A stretch of DNA of 20,000 nt. It comes from an uncultured virus (IMG/VR IMGVR_UViG_3300042356_001097) (lineage: Duplodnaviria; Heunggongvirae; Uroviricota; Caudoviricetes). A program made the position numbers and the translations under genes. How positions within the stretch are numbered: the first letter of the stretch is position 1; each line of letters begins with the position of its first letter. The stretch lies in IMG/VR virus record IMGVR_UViG_3300042356_001097. One strand, 5' to 3'. This document shows, piece after piece, positions 1 through 15,343 of this stretch. The notes beneath the pieces were generated by a model, which did not search any database, was not told the DNA's origin, and saw only the letters and a list, made by a program, of their open reading frames with translations.

Positions 1-1704
1 GCTTGGTCCACGATATGCTGGGGCAATGTTAAGTACAGTATCAGAGCTAATCTGGATAACTCTATAGGATTGTCCTCTAATTACAATTAGGTCTCCTACA
101 AGAAGCTGCTTTCTAAATCTAGTGTCTATACCTGTTACTACATTTGAAAACTGTGTTACTGAAACTTTACCGAACAGTTCTTTATTTGAGAATCTTCTTA
201 CTGCATATAATGTTCGTCCATCATACTCGAAATAGAATCCATTTTGATCATCATATAGTCCTGCTCTTGTTGCTGAGCCTTTCCATTGATACGCTGTTAC
301 GAAAGAGTTAACTCCACCTGGCAATTGATCAATTGCTGTAATTGCAGATGTAAATGTTTTTTGTAATAAAATTGTATTTGAATCTGGTACTGAGCTGATA
401 GTAAATAAACCATTAAATGGATTGTATGCTCCTACCGTTTCAATTCCTTCAACTTTAACTGTTGCTCCCGCTTGTAAATTGTGATCTTGCAAAACACGAA
501 TTGTAATTGTATTTGATCCGATTGCTGTGCTTGATGATGCAATATATGATATATCAAATGAAGGCGTAAACTTTGTTCCTGTTGAAAAAGTAATTGACTT
601 ACCTGACTGATATCTAAAGTATCTACGTGTTTGTCTAAGTGTTTGTGTTCCGCACACGTTGTTTCCTGTTGTAAGAATCACTCCACCGTCAAAAGGTCTA
701 TGCTCTACATAGCCTTCAGGCTTACAATACAAACCAATTCCTGTGGTAACAATTGTTCCTACTGGAATTAATCCTTGTGTCATAAAAGAGAAAGAATTTG
801 GGGTTGTAACTCTGTCAATCAAAAAGCTTCCGTTAATAGCACTTCCTGATGGAGCTGAAACCAAAATAGGTGTTCCTGGATATAATCCGTGTGGATTTGT
901 AGTTACTACGTTTATTCTAGAAAGGGCTGCACCGTCTGATGTAGCTGACCATGAATTTAGGTTACCTGTGTTTCCTCCAGGAATGTGAGCATTATCAAAA
1001 ATTCCTCCACCATAAAGATTTGTCAAAACTCCATCTTGTACGCTTGTGCCATTTGCCACAAAACCTTTAGCAATATATGAAAAAATAGTTGAGCTTAGCA
1101 CTGTAACCAGGAATGTTCCATCAGTTAATGGACTTAAAGACTCGTTAACGCTTACTACGTCTCCATTAGTTAATCCGTGTGGGGTTGCTGTGTTTACAAC
1201 AATTGTAGATCTAGGAGAACCTCCTGATGAAATAATGCTAACTACATCTAGGGAGTTTCCTCCTGTATTTCTTGAGAAGAATGTTGGGTAATTGTTTTGA
1301 AGAGAAAGTGATTCCCACTTGGAGCCCTGAACACCGTATTCAAAGTCTGTATCAATTAAAGATTCTGGATCTGATATCTTGAACTTTCCAACTGCATCCA
1401 GCTGATCTGGGGCTGGCATAAATGACTCAAATGGCTCATCAACCATAATCTGAAGTTTATCTGTTGACTGCATTGCTGATGTGTTGTATTCAAGAACTAA
1501 TACTGTTGATGGGTCATTTTGGCTACTGGTTAAAGAGTGGCTTACTAGACCTACCGCTGGGTCTGAAAAATTATAAATGATTTTATTCTGGGTGACGTTG
1601 GTGATCAAAAGAAGATTTTGTCTTAAGACTACTCTTGGAATTGTAATTGTGGATGTTGCAGGTGAAAATATAATTCCCTGGTCGTTAATTGCTCTTCTTG
1701 CCAT
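1..1704 (-). CDS. Large virion structural protein, runs off the window's left edge; absent from the ORF track
   Basis: ATG at 1704 after a GGGAG RBS; frame open to base 1: MARRAINDQGIIFSPATSTITIPR...LIDTDFEYG...QTRRYFRYQSGK. Repeated T-x-x-x-H-G/N-L beta motifs; resembles large virion proteins of aquatic myoviruses. Confidence 0.85.
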   Translation of the reverse strand, partial: MARRAINDQGIIFSPATSTITIPRVVLRQNLLLITNVTQNKIIYNFSDPAVGLVSHSLTSSQNDPSTVLVLEYNTSAMQSTDKLQIMVDEPFESFMPAPDQLDAVGKFKISDPESLIDTDFEYGVQGSKWESLSLQNNYPTFFSRNTGGNSLDVVSIISSGGSPRSTIVVNTATPHGLTNGDVVSVNESLSPLTDGTFLVTVLSSTIFSYIAKGFVANGTSVQDGVLTNLYGGGIFDNAHIPGGNTGNLNSWSATSDGAALSRINVVTTNPHGLYPGTPILVSAPSGSAINGSFLIDRVTTPNSFSFMTQGLIPVGTIVTTGIGLYCKPEGYVEHRPFDGGVILTTGNNVCGTQTLRQTRRYFRYQSGKSITFSTGTKFTPSFDISYIASSSTAIGSNTITIRVLQDHNLQAGATVKVEGIETVGAYNPFNGLFTISSVPDSNTILLQKTFTSAITAIDQLPGGVNSFVTAYQWKGSATRAGLYDDQNGFYFEYDGRTLYAVRRFSNKELFGKVSVTQFSNVVTGIDTRFRKQLLVGDLIVIRGQSYRVIQISSDTVLNIAPAYRGPS

Positions 1705-1719: not shown

Positions 1720-2337
1720 TTAGAAAATAAAACTTGTTGCCATAATTGTACCATTTATCTGTGCCAAAGATGATGTTAGTGCATATTTTGGATAATAAAT
1801 ACCTAGATTAAGTAATGAATCTAATTCATAGGCTGAAACTCTTCTTTCAATGTCCGCCACAACTACATCTCCAATTGGACCAATAGGTCCTTGTGGTCCC
1901 GCTGGTCCTGCATTTCCCTGAATACCTTGAGGTCCTCGTACGTTACCTTGTAATACCCAAGTAGTTGTTGATGCGCTATAAACGTAATACTCTCCAGTAT
2001 TTAAATTTATAAAGTTATCGCCTTCAATTAAATTTGTTAATCCCGCATTTTGTGGAATAGATTGGGCTGTGTATGTCTTTGTTCCTCTTGTACCTGGAAC
2101 ACCCGCTGGGCCTGTAACTGATGCGCCTTGTGGAATTGAAAAGTTAAAAACAGCATTTGTTGCTGTGCCTGAATTTGTTACTGTTGCGTTTGCACCTGCT
2201 GCAACTGTTGTTACTGTTCCTACAGATACGGCTGCGGCAGTTCCTGCTGGTCCTTGAGGGCCAGTGGCTCCCGTTGGGCCAGGTCGTGATCCTGCAACGA
2301 CTACCCACTCAGTTCCGTTATAGCGTTTTAATGACAT
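1720..2337 (-). CDS. Collagen-like (Gly-X-Y) minor tail/fibre protein
   Basis: [13 protein letters not shown] and [22 protein letters not shown] repeats; NAVFNFSIPQG motif typical of phage collagen fibres; GGAGAGG RBS. Confidence 0.85.
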   Translation of the reverse strand: MSLKRYNGTEWVVVAGSRPGPTGATGPQGPAGTAAAVSVGTVTTVAAGANATVTNSGTATNAVFNFSIPQGASVTGPAGVPGTRGTKTYTAQSIPQNAGLTNLIEGDNFINLNTGEYYVYSASTTTWVLQGNVRGPQGIQGNAGPAGPQGPIGPIGDVVVADIERRVSAYELDSLLNLGIYYPKYALTSSLAQINGTIMATSFIF

Positions 2338-4668: not shown

Positions 4669-5409
4669 TTAGTTATAGTTCTTGCGGTTCCAATACTTCT
4701 TTTTGTAATACCCATCGGAACCCTTTGAGTGGCTTTTAATGTCAACTGTATAACGAGCTTCAAGTATTTTACTAATCTTCATGACCCAAGAATCTCTTTT
4801 GTATGGGAGTAGTTGAGCTATTGGAGTTCCTTTTGGAATAACACCTTCAAAATCTTCTTTTAAAAAAAACGGGATATTGCCAGATGGAACCCAACCATCG
4901 CTGTCAATAACTCCCGACAGCGTTGTAAATGGCAAATCAAGTCTATTAAAGGGATGTGTTACAAGTACAGAATATCCTCTCGGAACTTTCCATCCCCACT
5001 TTCCGCTCCAAACAAAATGATTTTGCATATGCCCTGGTGGTCTTGGTATAGTAGATCCACTTGAACCTTTTCTTTCATTTACTAGTCTGCTAAAAATTTG
5101 ATTATCTTTAAGAGCATGGTTATGCGAAGTTCTTTTTTTATTAGGCTCAAATGATCCATCTTGTTTTATTTTGCCATCTTCAATAACAACAAAGCCATCT
5201 TCTCTTGATATCTTTAAATCATCGATAGTCGTTAAGGCGTAGCCAGTCAGCATTACATCCAGAAATGGTACACATGTTTTTAATCCTGCAGACTTTTTAT
5301 CATCATAGGTTTCTCCATCTTTATACCATTGAGGTATGTGATTTTTCATAGGAGAAGGCTCAAGCATGTCTACCATGTCTGGATAGGCCACAAACTTAAT
5401 TTTTTTCAT
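4669..5409 (-). CDS. Phage protein with dUTPase-like C-terminal motifs (possibly DUF6065-like)
   Basis: TCVPFLD, W.W..P.GYS.L.THP.NR; GVIDSD resembles dUTPase motif III and IPKGTPIAQL resembles motif IV; the other catalytic motifs are not evident. Confidence 0.65.
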   Translation of the reverse strand: MKKIKFVAYPDMVDMLEPSPMKNHIPQWYKDGETYDDKKSAGLKTCVPFLDVMLTGYALTTIDDLKISREDGFVVIEDGKIKQDGSFEPNKKRTSHNHALKDNQIFSRLVNERKGSSGSTIPRPPGHMQNHFVWSGKWGWKVPRGYSVLVTHPFNRLDLPFTTLSGVIDSDGWVPSGNIPFFLKEDFEGVIPKGTPIAQLLPYKRDSWVMKISKILEARYTVDIKSHSKGSDGYYKKKYWNRKNYN

Positions 5410-5417
5410 TTATGCCC

Positions 5418-5690
5418 CTAAGCTGGTGGTGTAAATGTTGTTCCGTCGTATGCCCAGTCTTGGCCTATTGCAACTTGTGAAATAAGCTCGCCTTCTACAC
5501 GATCTGGAAATGTTATATCTGTAATGTCAACAATTGTTGGATTGCTCAAGATAATAGCCCACATTCTTTCGTCTGTAGCCAGGGTCTGAACAACTTTGCC
5601 ATCAATAACATATGCTAACTTTTTAATATTCTCTGCTGGCACTGCAACAGGAACATCTTGTGTGGCTAACCACTCTTCATATACTGTCAT
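5418..5690 (-). CDS. Small tail-fibre assembly/chaperone-like protein (90 aa)
   Basis: Likely true start MTVYEEW at 5690 (GAGGAGG RBS; ATGA overlap with the upstream stop). LAYVIDGKVV...IGQDWAYDGTTFTPP pattern is typical of small genes after fibre/adhesin genes. Confidence 0.7.
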   Translation of the reverse strand: MTVYEEWLATQDVPVAVPAENIKKLAYVIDGKVVQTLATDERMWAIILSNPTIVDITDITFPDRVEGELISQVAIGQDWAYDGTTFTPPA

Positions 5691-5929
5691 ATTTTTTCCT
5701 CCTCTATTTTTGTTTGTCCCCATTTTCCAATAGGGCATTCTGCATTTGGTAGCTTTGTTTTTGCCGTCATAAGGCAACCACATTTTTTGCATTGGCTAGT
5801 AGTTTTTATAAAAAAGGTACAACCTTTACAAATCTCAAGTCTTTGATCTGCCGTTAAAGTATCTACACGGCCTATTTTTTTATTATACAGATCCCAGGGC
5901 CTAGCTGGTCTTTCAAACGGATCAGCCAT
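5687..5929 (-). CDS. Small Cys-motif protein (DUF6171-like), putative metal-binding or redox protein
   Basis: RLEICKGC..QCKKCGC..K......CPIGKW with 6 Cys; overlaps both neighbours. Confidence 0.75.
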   Translation of the reverse strand: MADPFERPARPWDLYNKKIGRVDTLTADQRLEICKGCTFFIKTTSQCKKCGCLMTAKTKLPNAECPIGKWGQTKIEEEKI

Positions 5930-6320: not shown

Positions 6321-7667
6321 TTAATTTACCCTAAATTCATCTATTGTGTATCCTTGGCTTGCGTTTGAAGCTCTTGAAATTATACCATGATCTTTTGACT
6401 TTTGTCCAGTATTTGTTGTAGTTAGGTCTGATCCAACTTGGGAAGAATAATTTACATCTGAATAAGCTTGAGCTGTAACACTATTGCCATCTGTGGTCAC
6501 CTTAATGCCAGCAATTGCTGTAGTTGAATTGCTTGTTGAGGATATAACTGTTTCTGAACCGCCTTCTTTTTTAATTAAATCTATTTTATGATGGTCTGCA
6601 CAGTTGCAATTATAAGTGTAGGATGAAGCACATCCGCAAGATGCATTTGGTCCATAGGAATATCCGTCGCAGTATTGGCACTGATTATATGCTCCACAAA
6701 CTGTGCATGAAGTATATCCTGTACAATATTGACATGAATTATTTGCAGCACAAACTGTACAGCTTGTGTAAGATGTACAGCATGACTGTTGTGAATATCC
6801 TGTACAAACTGTACAACTTCCATATGCAACACATTGTTGGCAGCTACCGTACACTGCACAATATGATCCCGAGCATTCGCTGTATGAAGAGCATGTTGTG
6901 CATGTTCCATAACTAAAGCATAATGTTACTGCACAAAATGTTGGCTGGCCACAAACAACTCCGCCTTTGTATGAATTATAAACATATGCGGCACAGCAAA
7001 AATTACCATAGTATGTATAGTACTCTGTACAACAACTACTTGTCGTATAGCCAGTGCAGCATGTATAGTAAAATGGAACACTTGCTATGCAGCACTCATA
7101 ATTTGAATAAGCAACACAGCATGTTTGTGTTCCATATGAGGAGCATACGGTACATGTTCCATATCCATTGCAGCAACTTGTTGTAGTATATGAAGCACAT
7201 CCGCAACTTCCGTCTGGTCCATAATTGTATTGGTTGCAGCATGTAGTCTGAGTATATGAAGCACAACCACAAGATGCATTAGACCCATAGGCGTATGAGC
7301 TACAATAAGAACAGCTATTGTACTGTCCGCATGCTGAACAAGTTTGACAAATATTTGTTGTATTTTTTACTACCGCCCAATAGTTCCCAGAGTCTGTTAC
7401 CCAAAAAGCTGGGCCTACACCCGATGCTGGATTTTTTGCTTTAATACTTGCATTTGTAGATGAAAATGTTGTTGAAATTAATGAACCTAATGCAACAGAT
7501 GTTCCTTTTCCTGCAGCAATTGTCCAACCAGCAACTACATGCTTCCATTTTGCGGAAGTCAATCCTGCATTTACTAGCGTCAGTCTACCAAAATCTTCTA
7601 CAAGAGAAAGCAATGCTTTTAGCCTTGAGACGGATGCGCTATGTCTTCTTCTGGGTCCTCTTGGCAT
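6321..7667 (-). CDS. Putative adhesin: ConA/lectin-like beta-sandwich interrupted by a 250-aa, 50-Cys insert (448 aa)
   Basis: Likely start MPRGPRR at 7667 (TAATG overlap with the upstream fibre stop). Flanks contain no Cys and read like a beta-sandwich (DFGR..W..GW.I; GPAFWVTDSGNYWAVV | KIDLIKKEGG; IKVTTDGNSVTAQAY; HGII; TIDEFRV). Confidence 0.8.
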   Translation of the reverse strand: MPRGPRRRHSASVSRLKALLSLVEDFGRLTLVNAGLTSAKWKHVVAGWTIAAGKGTSVALGSLISTTFSSTNASIKAKNPASGVGPAFWVTDSGNYWAVVKNTTNICQTCSACGQYNSCSYCSSYAYGSNASCGCASYTQTTCCNQYNYGPDGSCGCASYTTTSCCNGYGTCTVCSSYGTQTCCVAYSNYECCIASVPFYYTCCTGYTTSSCCTEYYTYYGNFCCAAYVYNSYKGGVVCGQPTFCAVTLCFSYGTCTTCSSYSECSGSYCAVYGSCQQCVAYGSCTVCTGYSQQSCCTSYTSCTVCAANNSCQYCTGYTSCTVCGAYNQCQYCDGYSYGPNASCGCASSYTYNCNCADHHKIDLIKKEGGSETVISSTSNSTTAIAGIKVTTDGNSVTAQAYSDVNYSSQVGSDLTTTNTGQKSKDHGIISRASNASQGYTIDEFRVN

Positions 7668-8980
7668 TATGCAGTTGTATCTCCTGTAACCAACCAGGAG
7701 TTTGCTGCTCTTTTTTCTAACATAATCGTGCTCCACTGAACTCTTGATTTAAATTGAGAATCTGTTCCCTGCATTGTTACCGCTGCATCTTTTGTTATAG
7801 TGACTTGCCCAGTTCCGATTTGTCTGACTTCAACCATTGATCCAATTGGCCATCCTGCATCTTGGGTATCATTTGGAATTGTAATTGTGCAAGCAACGCT
7901 GCATTCAAGAAGGGTGTTTTTATCTGTTGCAGAACTAATTGTCCGTGTTGCAGATGATACTGGAATATAAGTAATCAAGGCTTTTGTATTATCAGAGGTA
8001 TTGTCTACATTTGAAAGACCAACCATGTCTTTTGTGATTCCGCCTACCGTTCCAGTAAAGGTTGGTGAAGCAATTGGGGCTTTATTACCTAGAGCGGTAG
8101 TAATAGTTGCTGCGTATGAAGCATCATCATTTATTGCTGCCGCAAGTTCATTTAAAGTGTTTAATGTTTCTGGGGCAGAATCTAAAAGATTTGATACTGC
8201 TGTAGTAACATAAGACTGTGTAGCAAAATCTCCATCTGTTAATGCTGCATTAAATTCAGCCAGGGTTCCACTAAGAGTATTTCCTCCTACTGATATAATA
8301 AGTCTCGTTCCGCCACTAGTTGTTACTATTCCTGATACATATCCTATTCCAGAATTTACTACAGAAATAACTCCTTCTGCGCTAATGCTTATTCTACCGC
8401 CCCGATCAAGACCTGCCTGATAAATTGCTATATCGCTTTGCCCAAAAAATCCAGATATGTTATCGTATTGAGCAATTGATGTAATCCCAGTTCCAAGACC
8501 AATTGTTTTGTTTGTTAGAGTTTGAGCTAAAGTATTTCTTGTAATTTCTGCTGGTATTTCAGAATCTGGGATTTTACCCGTTTCATCAAGTGAGGCAACT
8601 CCGTCTGCATTTCCAACAATACTAAGAGGTACATAGCTTGCTGCTGACGTGCTACCTAAACCAGAAACGGCGGTATCGACATAAGTCTTATTAGCAATAG
8701 TGCTATCAACTGCAAGGGTAATTGTATTTGCAGTATCGTTATAACTTTTTGTTATTCCTGTTCCAGCTGTGATTGCAGATTCAACTGCATCTTGAGCAAG
8801 CTCTGAAAGTTCGCTTGGCAAAATATTAATATATGGAAGAGATGTCCACAAGCTTGTGCCATTGCCAACTTTTAATTTATTTAATGTTAAATCTAGTCCT
8901 AGTTCACCAGATTCTAAAATTTTAGTAGATGAATTCCATTGGGTAGTTGTGCCTCTTCTTATTCTTATTCTAGATGCCAT
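7667..8980 (-). CDS. Tail fibre protein with Mtd_N-like N-terminal domain
   Basis: [11 protein letters not shown]....ILESGELG.....KLKVGNG...W..LPY N-terminus; DSAPETLNTLNELAAAI; GLSNVDNTSD; C-terminal TITIP..WPIG...RQIGTGQVTI...WLVTGD domain. Confidence 0.85.
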   Translation of the reverse strand: MASRIRIRRGTTTQWNSSTKILESGELGLDLTLNKLKVGNGTSLWTSLPYINILPSELSELAQDAVESAITAGTGITKSYNDTANTITLAVDSTIANKTYVDTAVSGLGSTSAASYVPLSIVGNADGVASLDETGKIPDSEIPAEITRNTLAQTLTNKTIGLGTGITSIAQYDNISGFFGQSDIAIYQAGLDRGGRISISAEGVISVVNSGIGYVSGIVTTSGGTRLIISVGGNTLSGTLAEFNAALTDGDFATQSYVTTAVSNLLDSAPETLNTLNELAAAINDDASYAATITTALGNKAPIASPTFTGTVGGITKDMVGLSNVDNTSDNTKALITYIPVSSATRTISSATDKNTLLECSVACTITIPNDTQDAGWPIGSMVEVRQIGTGQVTITKDAAVTMQGTDSQFKSRVQWSTIMLEKRAANSWLVTGDTTA

Positions 8981-9212
8981 TTTCTATCATCACAACCTTT
9001 CCCTCAAGACAACAATTGTCTCCTCCGCTAAGAGTTTCAATTGCCATGTTGTAAGAATGCTCAAGAAAATCTTCTCTTCCAGTAGCCCAATTAATATTAA
9101 GTAGTTTTACTGTTTTATTTTCAGAAATGTTTTTAATAGTAAGATTTAGTAAAGGAGATGTTTCACTATCCTCTACTTCCCATTCCCAATTCCCTGTAGT
9201 TTCTATTGTCAT
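8970..9212 (-). CDS. Small acidic hypothetical protein (80 aa)
   Basis: Overlaps both flanking fibre genes, suggesting translational coupling; no recognised motif. Confidence 0.7.
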
Positions 9213-10495
9213 AATGTTGCTATATCCTTAACAGTTATTGTTCCAGCCATTCCGCTATGGAAAGAGCATAAATATCCATAATTTCCACTTATGCTATATG
9301 GCACCTGCCAGTATAGAGTTCCGCTAGTTTTTCCTTGGGCCATAGATCCAGTAGATATAGTTCCTGTTGTTGAAACGTGAATTAGTCCAGTGTCATAGTT
9401 AGCTCCAGAGAATCTAATTAAAAATGGGTGTCCCGCTACGTTTAAATTAAATGCAATAGTAGTTCCTGAAATTGCATAGATAGTTGGGTTTCCTCCGCCA
9501 TACTGATTTGTAAATAAATACGCTGAAGCACCACTGTTTGTTACATTTAACATAGTTATTGCAGGATAAGCAATTTTATCAATAGTAAGTCCAGCTGTAG
9601 TTGCGTCGCTTGTTCCGCTAAAACTTGCAGATCCCGCTGGTCCTTGAGGCCCAGTGTCACCTGTATCGCCTTTTAATCCTTGTGGACCTGTTGGTCCCGT
9701 TGGTCCAGGAACTGAGCTTGCTGCGCCTGTTGCGCCTGTATCACCCTTAAGTCCTTGTATTCCTTGCGGTCCTTGTGGACCTGTTGGTCCCGTTGGTCCT
9801 GTTAAACCTGTATCGCCTTTGAGTCCTTGTGGACCCTGTGGCCCAGTTGGTCCTGTTGGCCCTGTTAATCCTGTTGGACCTGTTGGTCCAGCAACTGTGC
9901 TTGCGTCACCTGTGTCACCTTTAGGTCCTTGTGGACCTTGCGGTCCTGTTGGACCTGTTGGTCCAGCAACTGTGCTTGCGTCACCTGTGTCACCTTTAGG
10001 TCCTTGTGGACCTTGCGGTCCTTGTGGACCTGTTGGTCCAGCAACTGTGCTTGCGTTGCCAGTGTCACCTTTAGGACCTTGAATCCCTTGTGGACCTTGT
10101 GGACCTTGAGGTCCTACAATTTGTCCTGCGCTATACCAAGACAATCCATTCCAAACATATAAGTCACCGTCTTCATCAACAATGTATGCATCGTTTACAG
10201 AGTTTCCTGTAGTTGGCAAACTTGCAACCAAAGCAACGCTTCCTTGCAAATCAACGGCAACACCTTGTGGACCTTGCGGTCCTTGCGGTCCTATTGGTCC
10301 TTGCGGTCCAGGGACGGTGCTTGCTGCGCCTGTGTCACCTTTTACAATAAAAGGAAGGTCTACCCAAAGGCTTGTACCATTACCAATTTTTAATTTATTT
10401 AATGTTAAATCTACACCAAGCTCTCCTACTTTTAAAATTTTAGTAGATTGAGCCCATTGAGTTGTAGTTCCACGCCTTATTTGTACAATAGCCAT
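9209..10495 (-). CDS. Collagen-like fibre with Mtd_N-like N-terminus and C-terminal cupredoxin-like domain
   Basis: [20 protein letters not shown]-terminus; long Gly-Pro-X tract; C-terminal GHPF...[15 protein letters not shown]. Confidence 0.85.
9876..10082 (-). repeat. 75-bp tandem repeat (about 2.7 copies) in the collagen coding region
   Basis: ggacctgttggtccagcaactgtgcttgcgt starts at 9876, 9951 and 10026; the first two units are almost identical. Confidence 0.9.
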
Positions 10496-13094: not shown

Positions 13095-13337
13095 TTACTT
13101 GCTTGTGAAGCCAAACTCTTTGTTGCTTGGGCTCAAAGCCTTTAGAATAACTGGAGCAATTGCTGCTACTCCTGCTGCAATCAAATCTTTTGGATTTGTG
13201 TTGCCAGTCATATATAGAGCTGTGGCTGCTGCCAAAAATGCTCTTCCGTAAGTTCCAATTGCTGCTAAAATTTGTTCTTGCATTGTTACTTTCCCATCTT
13301 TATTTAAATCAGCTTTATCAAATTTTTTGATAGCCAT
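13095..13337 (-). CDS. Holin-like small membrane protein with an N-terminal EF-hand-like loop
   Basis: Two hydrophobic Ala-rich helices and a basic C-terminus; DLNKDGKVTMQE fits DxDxDG-type spacing. Confidence 0.6.
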   Translation of the reverse strand: MAIKKFDKADLNKDGKVTMQEQILAAIGTYGRAFLAAATALYMTGNTNPKDLIAAGVAAIAPVILKALSPSNKEFGFTSK

Positions 13338-13408: not shown

Positions 13409-15343
13409 TTAAGAAGAAATGTCTACTAGCTCACAATTTCCGTCTGAACTACATGCAAGCGTAGCATTAGTAGATGTGCCATCTTCTGTCTCGTAGAAAG
13501 ACAAGTCTTCCCAGCGAATATCCTTTGGCATCTTTAAAACAAGAGCATCGTATTCTTCCTTTGATACTTCTTGGTACGGAGCCTGCTTGTATGAGTGATC
13601 TGAATGCGGTAGGAATGAAATTCCAGATACCTCATCGAAATGCTTATACACCCAAGCACCGACTTCCATCCATTCATCTTCTTTTACAGAAACTGTAATT
13701 GAAGGCTTGTGCTCACACCATGCACGTTGGTAAACTAACCAAATGTTTAAGTGCTCAATAGCAGTAAGATCGTTTCTAACAATTGCACCTTCTGGTGCTT
13801 TAATTGGGAATGAAAATACGTATGTATCGTTTGGCTTCATAACATCATCTTCTACTGGAATTCCGACTTCCTTTAAAAATGTAGAGATTGGATCTCCTTT
13901 TGCTCCACGAACTGTACGAATATAATATGGAGAATGCCAAGCATGCATTCCTGAAGATACCCCAACCAATTGAGATACTGTTCCTGATGGCTTTACGCAT
14001 GTAATAGCGGCAGACTCAGGAATCCCAATCTTTTCAGCTTCATCTTTATTCTTTGCTCTTGCTGATTCTCTAAGAGTCATCAAGAAAGATTCTAGTGAAA
14101 CAAGATCTTCTTTGCCTGACATAAACTTGTGTCCAAATTGTCCAGTTAAAGAAACACCTAGCAGGCGTTCTTCTTCTGTATTGTCTTTCCAGATCTTGCG
14201 AAGATATTTAAAGTCTGTAAGCGTTGACTGCCACGTTCCAAGAATAGTTGCAAGCTCAACCTTACGTTCAATATCTTTCTTTGTATCATTTTCACGTAGT
14301 ACGACTTCTGAAAGGTTACAAAACTGGTAAGGACGTAAGATAATCTCTGAGCACGGGTTAGTTCCATAGTGTATATCTGGATCTCTTCTTCCATACTTGG
14401 CTGCTTGGGCTTGAGCTGCGGCCACATTGTATATACCTCGTTCTCCTGACTTTGAATCATATAGAGATTTCCATTCTGCAATAAATTGCTCCATGTCTGG
14501 CTTGCGTGAGTACGCAACAGAGTTATTAGACAAAGCACGTTGTGTATTGGCTTCCCACCAGTTACCTGATTTAGCCTGTGCCATCTCAATATCGTTAATG
14601 TTAGAAAGTGAAATCATTGCTGATCGACGAACTCCGCCTACAACAACTACTTCACCGATCTTGCACATAATATCGTGACATTCAATTGGCTTAAGGTTTC
14701 TTCCTGTGGCACTCTTGAACTTTGCAATTGTAAAATCAAATAGATTAATAAGTGGTTGTGGACCCGATGATCTTCCGCCCATTGTCTTAAGTCTTGCTCC
14801 TGCTGGTCTTACCTTAGAAACATCAATTGCTGGAATCTGTCCAGACCAAAGTAGCGCTAGCAACTCACGGTACGCCTTAGCCCAACCTTGCTTTGAGTCC
14901 TCCACTGTAATTACTGTAGTTGACTTTTCCAATGACTCTGGGACGGCAGGAAGTTTATTAATATACTTATACTCAACAGAGAATCCTACACCTGTACCGC
15001 ACATAAGGATATACATTGTTTCATCAAATGAACGTGGTGAATCAACTGGTAGGAAAGCACAGTTATATCCTGCTACATTGTCTCTTTCCAATGCTACTCC
15101 TGAAGTCATAACAGAACGCATTGATGGCATTACATTTCGTTCAAAGACAAACTCTTTTAATTCCGCAACAAGCTTCTCATTTGGAATATAATTATAATTC
15201 TTTTCTAAGTGGCCAAGCATGAAGTTAAAATATCTATCTACTGTTTCACCCCAAGTCTCACGACGATTATCTTCTGATATCCATCTTGCATATCTTGATA
15301 ACGCAATGAAATTTTCGTATGGGTTTGCAATAGTCTTAGACAT
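13409..15343 (-). CDS. nrdJ: Class II adenosylcobalamin-dependent ribonucleotide reductase (monomeric RTPR type)
   Basis: GYNCAF, GTGVGFS, GGVRRSA, TNPCSEI, FCNLSE, VKPSGT motifs and a C-terminal Cys pair CSSDGNC; no beta subunit gene in the window. Confidence 0.93.
   Translation of the reverse strand: MSKTIANPYENFIALSRYARWISEDNRRETWGETVDRYFNFMLGHLEKNYNYIPNEKLVAELKEFVFERNVMPSMRSVMTSGVALERDNVAGYNCAFLPVDSPRSFDETMYILMCGTGVGFSVEYKYINKLPAVPESLEKSTTVITVEDSKQGWAKAYRELLALLWSGQIPAIDVSKVRPAGARLKTMGGRSSGPQPLINLFDFTIAKFKSATGRNLKPIECHDIMCKIGEVVVVGGVRRSAMISLSNINDIEMAQAKSGNWWEANTQRALSNNSVAYSRKPDMEQFIAEWKSLYDSKSGERGIYNVAAAQAQAAKYGRRDPDIHYGTNPCSEIILRPYQFCNLSEVVLRENDTKKDIERKVELATILGTWQSTLTDFKYLRKIWKDNTEEERLLGVSLTGQFGHKFMSGKEDLVSLESFLMTLRESARAKNKDEAEKIGIPESAAITCVKPSGTVSQLVGVSSGMHAWHSPYYIRTVRGAKGDPISTFLKEVGIPVEDDVMKPNDTYVFSFPIKAPEGAIVRNDLTAIEHLNIWLVYQRAWCEHKPSITVSVKEDEWMEVGAWVYKHFDEVSGISFLPHSDHSYKQAPYQEVSKEEYDALVLKMPKDIRWEDLSFYETEDGTSTNATLACSSDGNCELVDISS

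Follow-up and report, generated by a model that had tools for sequence, protein, structure and literature searches.

A putative disulfide-laddered hairpin of variable length in a lectin-like tail protein family of uncultured long-tailed phages

Here we report the computational characterization of a cysteine-rich, lectin-like protein encoded in a 20,000-nucleotide stretch of DNA from an uncultured virus of the class Caudoviricetes (IMG/VR record IMGVR_UViG_3300042356_001097). This whole stretch is called the window below, and positions are counted from its first letter. The protein is probably an accessory component of a siphophage tail-fibre module, in which a lectin-like beta-sandwich carries a 250-residue hairpin whose two arms would be linked by a ladder of disulfides. 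The parts of the protein, delimited on its translation and on a model built with AlphaFold2 (AF2; per-residue confidence is given as the predicted local distance difference test, pLDDT), are as follows.

6321..7667, minus strand: gene of the cysteine-ladder lectin-like protein, 448 amino acids (aa), from its open reading frame (ORF) and translation; stop codon at 6321-6323
7593..7667, minus strand: basic peptide at the N terminus, residues 1-25; carries the motif S14-R15-L16-K17-A18, present across the family
7350..7592, minus strand: N-terminal half of the predicted ConA-like beta-sandwich, residues 26-106; pLDDT 81-95; 77% identity among 31 close relatives
6993..7349, minus strand: N arm of the hairpin, residues 107-225; 25 cysteines, mainly in CC-x7..10 units; a strand in the AF2 model
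6954..6992, minus strand: tip loop AAYVYNSYKGGVV, residues 226-238, 13 residues, Tyr-rich; AF2 turn at 232-235 (S-Y-K-G)
6600..6953, minus strand: C arm of the hairpin, residues 239-356; 25 cysteines, mainly in C-x2-C-x5 units
6324..6599, minus strand: C-terminal half of the predicted ConA-like beta-sandwich, residues 357-448; pLDDT 81-95; 78% identity

Recounting from the sequence bore out the anatomy given in the original prediction, which had been made from the letters of the window. The insert covers residues 107-356 (window 6600-7349) and holds exactly 50 cysteines (Cys) in 250 aa, which the largest spacer, C-AAYVYNSYKGGVV-C, separates into two sets of 25. Outside the insert, the 448-aa protein read from the ATG at 7667 is free of Cys, and the recomputed list of 24 pairs of N-arm and C-arm spacers is identical to the earlier one. 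The insert consists of 20% Cys, 15% Tyr (37 residues), 14% Ser, and 12% Thr, and has only six charged residues (two Asp, three Glu, and one Lys) with neither Arg nor His. At the base of the hairpin, a C-x2-C-x2-C motif stands opposite C-x-C. The longest ORF at the locus starts with GTG at 7736, and the extra Cys of this extended frame sits upstream of the ATG at 7667-7665. The ATG is the likely true start, because it overlaps the TAA stop codon of the upstream gene (7669-7667) in a TAATG, is preceded at a distance of 13 nt by AGGAG (7685-7681), and coincides with the start of the close homologs; the same initial Met was found in 52 homologs. The motif within residues 1-25 is nearly invariant in a 42-sequence alignment, and AF2 gives residues 1-4 and 6-15 a pLDDT below 50.

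The AF2 prediction, run with the same 42-sequence alignment, yielded a best model with a mean pLDDT of 82.4 and a predicted template modelling score (pTM) of 0.49, the insert reaching pLDDT 74-85 and the flanks 81-95. In this model, residues 96-231 and 236-368 are the two strands of one continuous hairpin closed by the turn at 232-235, and the strands run unbroken across the borders between flanks and insert. The original prediction had named structure prediction as a check on a single long hairpin against locally folded tandem modules, and the model gives the hairpin. Comparison of the model with 48,161 chains by VIA-align returned alignments that span both flanks (model range 17/27..448). 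The closest chain was the carbohydrate-binding module CBM66 (4b1m; Z 16.7, root-mean-square deviation (rmsd) 2.8 Å over 151 of 165 residues), followed by the galactocerebrosidase lectin domain (3zr5; Z 15.5) and the C-terminal domain of a GH43 protein (6ms3; Z 14.9). Phage proteins among the matches were the C-terminal receptor-binding domain of mycobacteriophage TM4 gp23 (9n6a; Z 14.8), the mycobacteriophage Douge baseplate (8zdo; Z 14.7), Dit CBM2 of Lactobacillus phage J-1 (5ly8; Z 12.5), phage G7C gp63.1 (4qnl; Z 10.9), and the tailspike of cyanopodophage Pan3 (9vyh; Z 9.9), and dozens more ConA-like entries scored above Z 10. By this comparison the flanks are one ConA-like, CBM66-like beta-sandwich that resembles phage receptor-binding domains. 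The claim that the joined flanks form a single ConA-like sandwich, two strands of which continue into the needle, was thus upheld by the 4b1m match and by the unbroken strands of the model.

Sequence-based family assignment returned no Pfam family at E<=5 and no PHROG family at E<=0.001 for the ladder protein, and Foldseek gave no match at E<=0.001 in the PDB. The weak top Foldseek rows, pore hairpins of aerolysin and lysenin, were set aside as a likeness of shape only. In the ESM Atlas, which contains the sequence, the nearest clusters were unnamed viral or Actinomycetota-labelled proteins, or ConA-like families.

A homolog search with the ladder protein found 52 relatives, all of them unnamed or labelled 'hypothetical', and searching 1.84 billion representatives with the family profile brought up 544 clusters (defined at 50% identity) at E<=0.001, 404 of them at E<=1e-10. 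One entry, P0001, is a GTG-extended duplicate of the query and was excluded from the counts. In all 40 close homologs (P0002-P0041) the number of Cys is equal on the two sides of the conserved loop, with totals of 50, 48, 42, 40, 36, 34, 32, 30, and 28. The remaining 12 homolog rows comprise three with equal numbers around the largest spacer, eight whose largest spacer is off-centre, and one fragment. To delimit the insert, we used hidden Markov models of the flanks, which reduced 198 proteins to 194 with both flanks and 186 with complete flanks. The Cys count is even in 185 of these 186, five of which have no Cys at all, and ranges from 4 to 50 per insert in the Cys-bearing members. The single odd member, P0056 (362 aa), has 17 Cys; it resembles P0046 (596 aa) minus the tip and the distal parts of both arms, and may have arisen by deletion or through misassembly.

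Arm lengths were compared in the 177 members with an even count of at least eight Cys. They range from 16 to 196 aa and correlate between the N and C arms with r=0.954. The mirror register of the two arms was tighter than the direct register in 131 members, equal in 7, and looser in 39; with cluster representatives only (n=130), the respective numbers were 106, 7, and 17. Repeat units vary by subfamily and yet agree between the two arms of each protein: 9 versus 9 residues in the query, about 11 versus 12 in P0032-P0041, 15 versus 15 in P0044, and 10-12 versus 10-12 with a single Cys each in P0050, P0101, and P0179.

Pairwise comparisons of close relatives, in which each Cys was ranked by its position counted from the hairpin base on its arm, showed Cys changes at mirrored ranks. 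At rank 10, Cys is replaced by Val on the N arm together with Thr on the C arm (P0010 and P0026 versus P0004), and at rank 6 a change of Cys to Ile accompanies Cys to Gly on the opposite arm (P0037 and P0039 versus P0036, P0040, P0041, and P0033). Paired changes were likewise found at rank 22 (P0018 versus P0022), rank 20 (P0017 versus P0021), and ranks 11 and 13 (P0033 versus P0029), and rung 18 shifts in concert on both arms. Insertions and deletions are matched in the same manner. An 11-residue module with one Cys is inserted at both N13 and C13 (P0037 versus P0032), and another at N15 and C16. The 50-Cys and 40-Cys forms differ on the N arm by a 22-residue, four-Cys deletion plus one substitution, and on the C arm by a matching deletion of 18 residues with four Cys plus one substitution, both at ranks 10-14. 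Single-residue shifts of a Cys inside one arm do occur; a change of Cys number limited to one arm was not seen in the close-relative comparisons.

The relatives support most of the architecture put forward originally. The out-and-back antiparallel needle agrees with the two AF2 strands, with the equal Cys numbers of the arms in 40 of 40 close homologs, and with the correlation of arm lengths, and the proposed comparison of arm lengths and Cys counts among relatives came out in its favour (r=0.954 and 185 even counts of 186). The pairing of Cys i with Cys n+1-i is supported, by covariation only, by the mirrored changes at ranks 6, 10, 20, and 22, and growth or shrinkage by paired modules by the 11-aa, one-Cys inserts at N13 and C13 and by the four-Cys blocks of 22 aa (N arm) and 18 aa (C arm).

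The symmetry of the spacers within this one protein had been the initial argument for the ladder, and here the two parts of the claim separated: the pattern itself is present, and its statistical weight has to come from the relatives. When the N-arm spacers were shuffled 100,000 times, an equally tight mirror register arose in 5% of the shuffles by standard deviation (SD) or 11% by maximum deviation. Spacers of 0 face 5 and spacers of 7 face 2 because both arms consist of 9-residue repeats with two Cys each (CC-x7 and C-x2-C-x5). If 50 Cys are placed at random, the central gap is the largest gap in 2% of trials. Mirror pairing thus appears to be established by the family and not by the single sequence.

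Several points weigh against the laddered hairpin. The other four of the five AF2 models reached pLDDT values of only 66-72. In the query, the direct, non-mirrored register is tighter than the mirror register (SD 2.7 versus 3.5), and the mirror pattern of the query alone falls short of significance (p 0.05-0.11). The direct register is the better fit in 39 of the 177 family members, and within-arm shuffles are outperformed at p<0.05 by only 82 of 177, which we attribute to uniform repeats carrying no information. The pairwise comparisons share ancestry, so that independent covariation events are fewer than comparisons. The residue numbers of successive ladder pairs sum alternately to 463 and 468, which offsets half of the rungs by 5 residues; to close all 25 rungs, the chain would need alternating 5-residue bulges, which are not seen in the AF2 model, or the Cys of another chain. 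Phage proteins are made in the reducing cytoplasm, and a thiol oxidase was not found on the 62-kb contig of the virus. Finally, the presence of the ladder protein in the virion, its binding, and its oxidation are predictions.

The tighter direct register of the query, together with the DNA repeats of the insert, is what would be expected if the arms were strings of small, locally folded Cys-rich units of the granulin, tumour necrosis factor receptor cysteine-rich domain (TNFR-CRD), or insect-antifreeze type with disulfides inside each arm, the symmetry arising merely from two tandem arrays of similar period. The CC-x7-CC spacing is reminiscent of granulin, and the TCT and CTVC motifs are reminiscent of beetle antifreeze protein. 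No inverted DNA repeats were found across the insert, only direct ones, and modules are common to both arms at the DNA level in the same orientation. One such direct repeat of 77 nt (66-71% identity; window 6623-6699, 7190-7266, and 7256-7332) joins the base module of the C arm (YGPNASCGCAS...) with two base modules of the N arm, the arms being antiparallel in the protein. We nevertheless judge locally folded units extremely unlikely. Arms with odd Cys counts (25, 21, 17, and 15) cannot pair internally, which rules out purely within-arm pairing; a single Cys is lost or inserted at equal rank on each arm; arm lengths keep their correlation of 0.95 over a 12-fold range; and AF2 predicts one hairpin. 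Moreover, the 13-residue loop and the flanks that form one domain force the chain to follow an out-and-back path.

As for the chemistry of the cross-links, the original prediction had left two options, 25 disulfide rungs or about 12 Cys4 metal sites, and the Cys counts indirectly favour rungs of two Cys each. Disulfides are preferred because counts step by two with no preference for multiples of four, single-Cys rungs are common, and the insert has no His. Of the 180 members with a non-zero even count, 93 have a multiple of four and 87 do not, and in many members a single Cys recurs every 10-12 residues along each arm. That the Cys bind metal instead, in about 12 Cys4 sites for Zn or Fe or in metallothionein-like clusters, is very unlikely in our assessment, even though CxxC and CC motifs are frequent, the base sets C-x2-C-x2-C opposite C-x-C, a reducing cytoplasm favours thiolate-metal sites, and the metal-stitched needle of T4 gp37 offers a precedent. 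Fifty is not a multiple of four, nor is the family count skewed towards such multiples (93 versus 87); Cys are gained and lost in twos, one per arm; one Cys per arm every 10-12 residues cannot build Cys4 sites; and His is missing from the insert. Functional disulfides in the tail of an aquatic phage have a precedent in the cyanophage Pam3, where they were shown by cryo-electron microscopy, mass spectrometry, and release with dithiothreitol (DTT) (PMC9942802).

Five full-length members (P0167, P0172, P0184, P0191, and P0193) are Cys-free, with inserts of 119-253 aa rich in Tyr, Thr, Ser, Gly, Asn, and Ala. They look like unstapled needles, which suggests that the ribbon can fold without staples and that Cys were added as braces.

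The alternation of residue sums bears on the number of chains in the needle. The rungs do not fall at directly opposed residues of a regular ribbon, and a ribbon of one register, as drawn by AF2, can bond only half of them. The x5 loop of the C arm faces CC, and five of the x7 spacers of the N arm face C-x2-C. Judged by residue counts, the needle would be about 17 nm long as a bulged, beaded rod and about 40 nm as a flat ribbon. An unlikely but coherent alternative keeps the hairpin and makes the functional unit an oligomer, for instance three hairpins in a six-stranded tube resembling T4 gp37, with the sum-463 Cys bonded within the chain and the sum-468 Cys bonded to the opposite arm of a neighbouring chain. 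It would account for the fact that one fixed register serves only half of the rungs, tail fibres are usually trimers, and equal arm counts with mirrored covariation are likewise expected when an N arm pairs with the C arm of a neighbour. However, CBM66 and the J-1 Dit CBM2 are typically single-chain modules, and in relatives whose rungs are single and in register a partner chain is unnecessary. The covarying pairs of the query subfamily (212/256, 203/265, and 172/296 in query numbering) all belong to the offset, sum-468 class and are compatible with either model. A three-copy complex prediction of residues 100-365, run without controls, gave a score of 0.00 and counts neither way. We keep the single-chain hairpin as the working model, with its monomeric state as a prediction.

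The source genome is a single contig of 62,295 bp (GC 39.4%) with portal, head protease, capsid-like, and adaptor genes. It also encodes a tape measure protein of 2,739 residues (G000:C1:50880-59099, outside the window), which implies a very long non-contractile tail; the structural genes and the tape measure protein identify a long-tailed siphovirus. The head protease shares 43% identity with its counterparts in Streptomyces siphophages of about 131 kb, and some distant members of the ladder family lie in metagenome-assembled genomes labelled Actinobacteria, which hints at aquatic actinobacteria as hosts. The ladder family occurs at 61 IMG/VR loci, on contigs of up to 125 kb. A screen of cellular genomes (185,579 species) gave 61 pattern matches and no relative of the family, and tblastn with the whole protein and with the N flank found no match in 50,697 phage records, where the low-complexity filter may mask the insert and the flank failed too. 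Megablast of the window matched only a 155-nt stretch of a ribonucleotide reductase gene of a Streptomyces phage.

Tail-fibre genes, recognized by Mtd_N domains, collagen repeats, and PHROG tail-fibre families, lie on both sides of the ladder gene. The neighbouring features that recur with it are listed below.

7667..8980, minus strand: upstream tail-fibre gene, 437 aa; N-terminal Mtd_N domain (Pfam, 1.6e-11) and matches to PHROG tail-fibre families
~7670-7993, minus strand: C-terminal domain of the 437-aa fibre, its last ~100-110 residues, ending ...W-x-L-x-G-D-x-x-A
4669..5409, minus strand: phrog_7084 protein, 246 aa, annotated 'unknown function'; conserved downstream

The ladder-family gene directly follows a fibre gene in the 12 diverse loci examined, and in 10 of these 12 the fibre ends with this C-terminal domain (by BLAST), immediately before the ladder gene. 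The upstream fibres otherwise differ in their N-terminal and central parts, which include Mtd_N and collagen-like types in proteins of 238-711 aa. The shared C-terminal domain is a candidate docking platform for the ladder protein, and the conserved basic N-terminal peptide may be what docks the protein on this domain or on the virion.

In 11 of the 12 loci, a homolog of the 246-aa protein is encoded downstream, no more than two or three genes from the ladder gene. The AF2 model of the 246-aa protein (pLDDT 73) matched dUTPases in the top 12 VIA-align rows (best Z 9.2), with a Foldseek value of 3.8e-4. We had considered this protein as a disulfide-making enzyme and dropped it for its dUTPase-like fold; its model is a jelly roll like that of trimeric dUTPases, encoded inside a conserved tail-fibre cassette.

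Other genes of the window complete the picture. Fibre proteins with collagen-like G-x-y repeats are encoded at 9209-10495 and 1720-2337 (both minus strand); the former has an N-terminal Mtd_N domain, and its C-terminal part matches a PHROG of baseplate-wedge tail-fibre connectors. An 80-aa ORF at 5687-5929 (minus strand) has a CxxC...CxxC arrangement and a sub-threshold match to DUF6171 (3.1e-5, 24.7 bits against a cutoff of 27), and is 80% and 66% identical to ORFs in loci L007 and L042. A 124-aa ORF at 5418-5792 overlaps with it in its 5' part; in distant loci, the C-terminal half of this longer ORF is kept as an ORF of about 80 aa behind the ladder gene. A class II (B12-type) ribonucleotide reductase gene (13409-15343, minus strand; phrog_367, 1e-188) directly adjoins the fibre block, and the 155-nt stretch within it is 77.6% identical to Streptomyces phage Stigma. 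Beside the reductase, an 80-aa ORF (13095-13337, minus strand) has a sub-threshold EF-hand match (5.5e-5).

Variability along the protein was measured against the query in 31 close relatives. Identity is 77-78% in the flanks, about 63% at the arm bases, and about 30% in the middle and distal arms (non-Cys positions for the arms). The tip loop is 56% identical overall, with Y228, Y230, Y233, K234, and G236 conserved in at least 90% of the relatives. The expectation of a hypervariable tip therefore failed: the tip is a conserved aromatic turn, and the diversity is carried by the arms.

This distribution of variability speaks for a different role, in which the protein helps to assemble the fibre or serves it as a strut or spacer, the needle is a ruler or brace and not a receptor binder, and the variable arms reflect weak constraint instead of host-range selection. 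The arms keep only their Cys and Tyr pattern, and the conservation of tip and flanks is the reverse of what a hypervariable binding tip would show; furthermore, the co-conservation of the small downstream ORF and the dUTPase-fold gene suggests an assembly cassette. We regard such a structural role as somewhat unlikely, since the flanks resemble receptor- and carbohydrate-binding domains of phage tails (9n6a, 8zdo, 5ly8, 4qnl, and 9vyh), a place directly after the fibre gene would be typical of distal adhesins, and the family is very diverse, with its 544 clusters at 50% identity. Recognition of the host surface, or reach towards it, would be the most likely role.

Based on these data, we propose the following scenario, of which the anatomy, the matching of the arms across the family, the fold of the flanks, and the gene context come from computation, and the disulfide chemistry, the monomeric state, the docking, and the receptor role are inferred. 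Residues 26-106 and 357-448 would fold into one CBM66-like beta-sandwich, two neighbouring strands of which would extend outward as a single antiparallel hairpin of 250 residues. The Tyr/Ser/Thr-rich, uncharged hairpin may fold as a ribbon unaided, as suggested by Cys-free relatives of shared composition. Disulfides would then staple Cys of equal rank, counted from the base, across the two arms in up to 25 rungs, with oxidation probably taking place after release into oxic water. The resulting needle, about 17-40 nm long, would be stiff and protease-resistant, and its length and surface would evolve through matched changes on both arms. In the virion, the protein is predicted to attach to the upstream fibre at the conserved domain that ends the latter, perhaps by means of the N-terminal peptide of the ladder protein. 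Both the lectin-like domain and the needle, tipped by conserved aromatic residues, could then contact the cell envelope.

Beyond this, we tentatively put forward, at a little under an even chance, a more general view: that a large group of uncultured aquatic long-tailed phages carries a single-chain, covalently laddered beta-hairpin 'nanoneedle' that projects from a lectin domain, has not been seen in solved structures, has its length set by matched modules, folds uncross-linked and oxidises on release, and acts as a rigid reach-and-bind probe through the outer layers of the host. If this holds, phages would have a new architecture for host recognition, and nature would offer a template for protease-resistant protein rods whose length can be programmed. 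A real ladder would be the longest nested-disulfide hairpin known, about 10 times the size of cystine-ladder peptides, in an unannotated family with 544 or more sequence clusters, and a new design of phage appendage beside trimeric fibres, beta-helices, and immunoglobulin (Ig) chains. It would also be a case of coupled evolution, in which each change of length takes two separate matching DNA events and the arms stay paired in 185 of 186 members. A modular, uncharged, covalently braced rod whose length can be read from the sequence would be of interest for protein design.

Comparison with known systems places each part of this architecture. The ConA-like domains of phage tails and baseplates (9n6a, 8zdo, and 5ly8) and CBM66 (4b1m) have the same sandwich (Z 16.7-12.5, 151-168 aligned residues, rmsd 2.8-3.8), whereas the ladder protein has no Pfam or PHROG membership, and the known domains are without a long Cys-rich hairpin insert. 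Theta-defensins (with their 'cyclic cystine ladder'), tachyplesin, and protegrin are free peptides with two or three nested rungs in about 18 residues. Like the ladder protein, they form an antiparallel hairpin with parallel rungs that join Cys i to Cys n+1-i, but the ladder protein would have up to 25 rungs over 250 residues inside a folded domain, with rungs alternating between two registers and a variable length (arms of 16-196 aa). In the distal needle of T4 gp37, the chain runs out to the tip and back; three such chains intertwine, stitched together by iron that His residues coordinate. An out-and-back chain stitched along its axis is common to both proteins; the ladder protein, however, has no His and would use Cys pairs as cross-links.

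In the ultralong heavy-chain complementarity-determining region 3 (CDR-H3) of bovine antibodies, a long two-stranded beta-ribbon stalk projects a knob (PMC8602281 and PMC10523490). There, as proposed for the ladder protein, a ribbon carries a binding element far from a beta-sandwich, but it is the knob that holds the disulfides, and the needle exceeds the antibody stalk in length about 10 times; the ladder extends over the full length of its hairpin, and its tip is a plain conserved Y-x-Y-x-x-Y-K-G-G turn. Pam3 resembles the ladder family in being an aquatic phage whose tail apparatus depends on virion disulfides, although those reported (PMC9942802) are few, tether the fibres to the baseplate wedge, and form no intrachain ladder. 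Tentaclins, in which Ig domains and a short hairpin mutated by a diversity-generating retroelement (DGR) are joined to a C-type lectin (PMC10743442), were considered and set aside as unrelated. A 25-rung ladder on a 250-residue single-chain hairpin was not found described in the full-text literature, a coverage that leaves out subscription journals. Known parts are thus the flank fold, the fibre-associated position of the gene, short nested ladders, ribbon stalks, and stitched needles; new would be their combination in a lectin-like phage tail protein with a cystine-ladder hairpin of variable length and up to 25 rungs.

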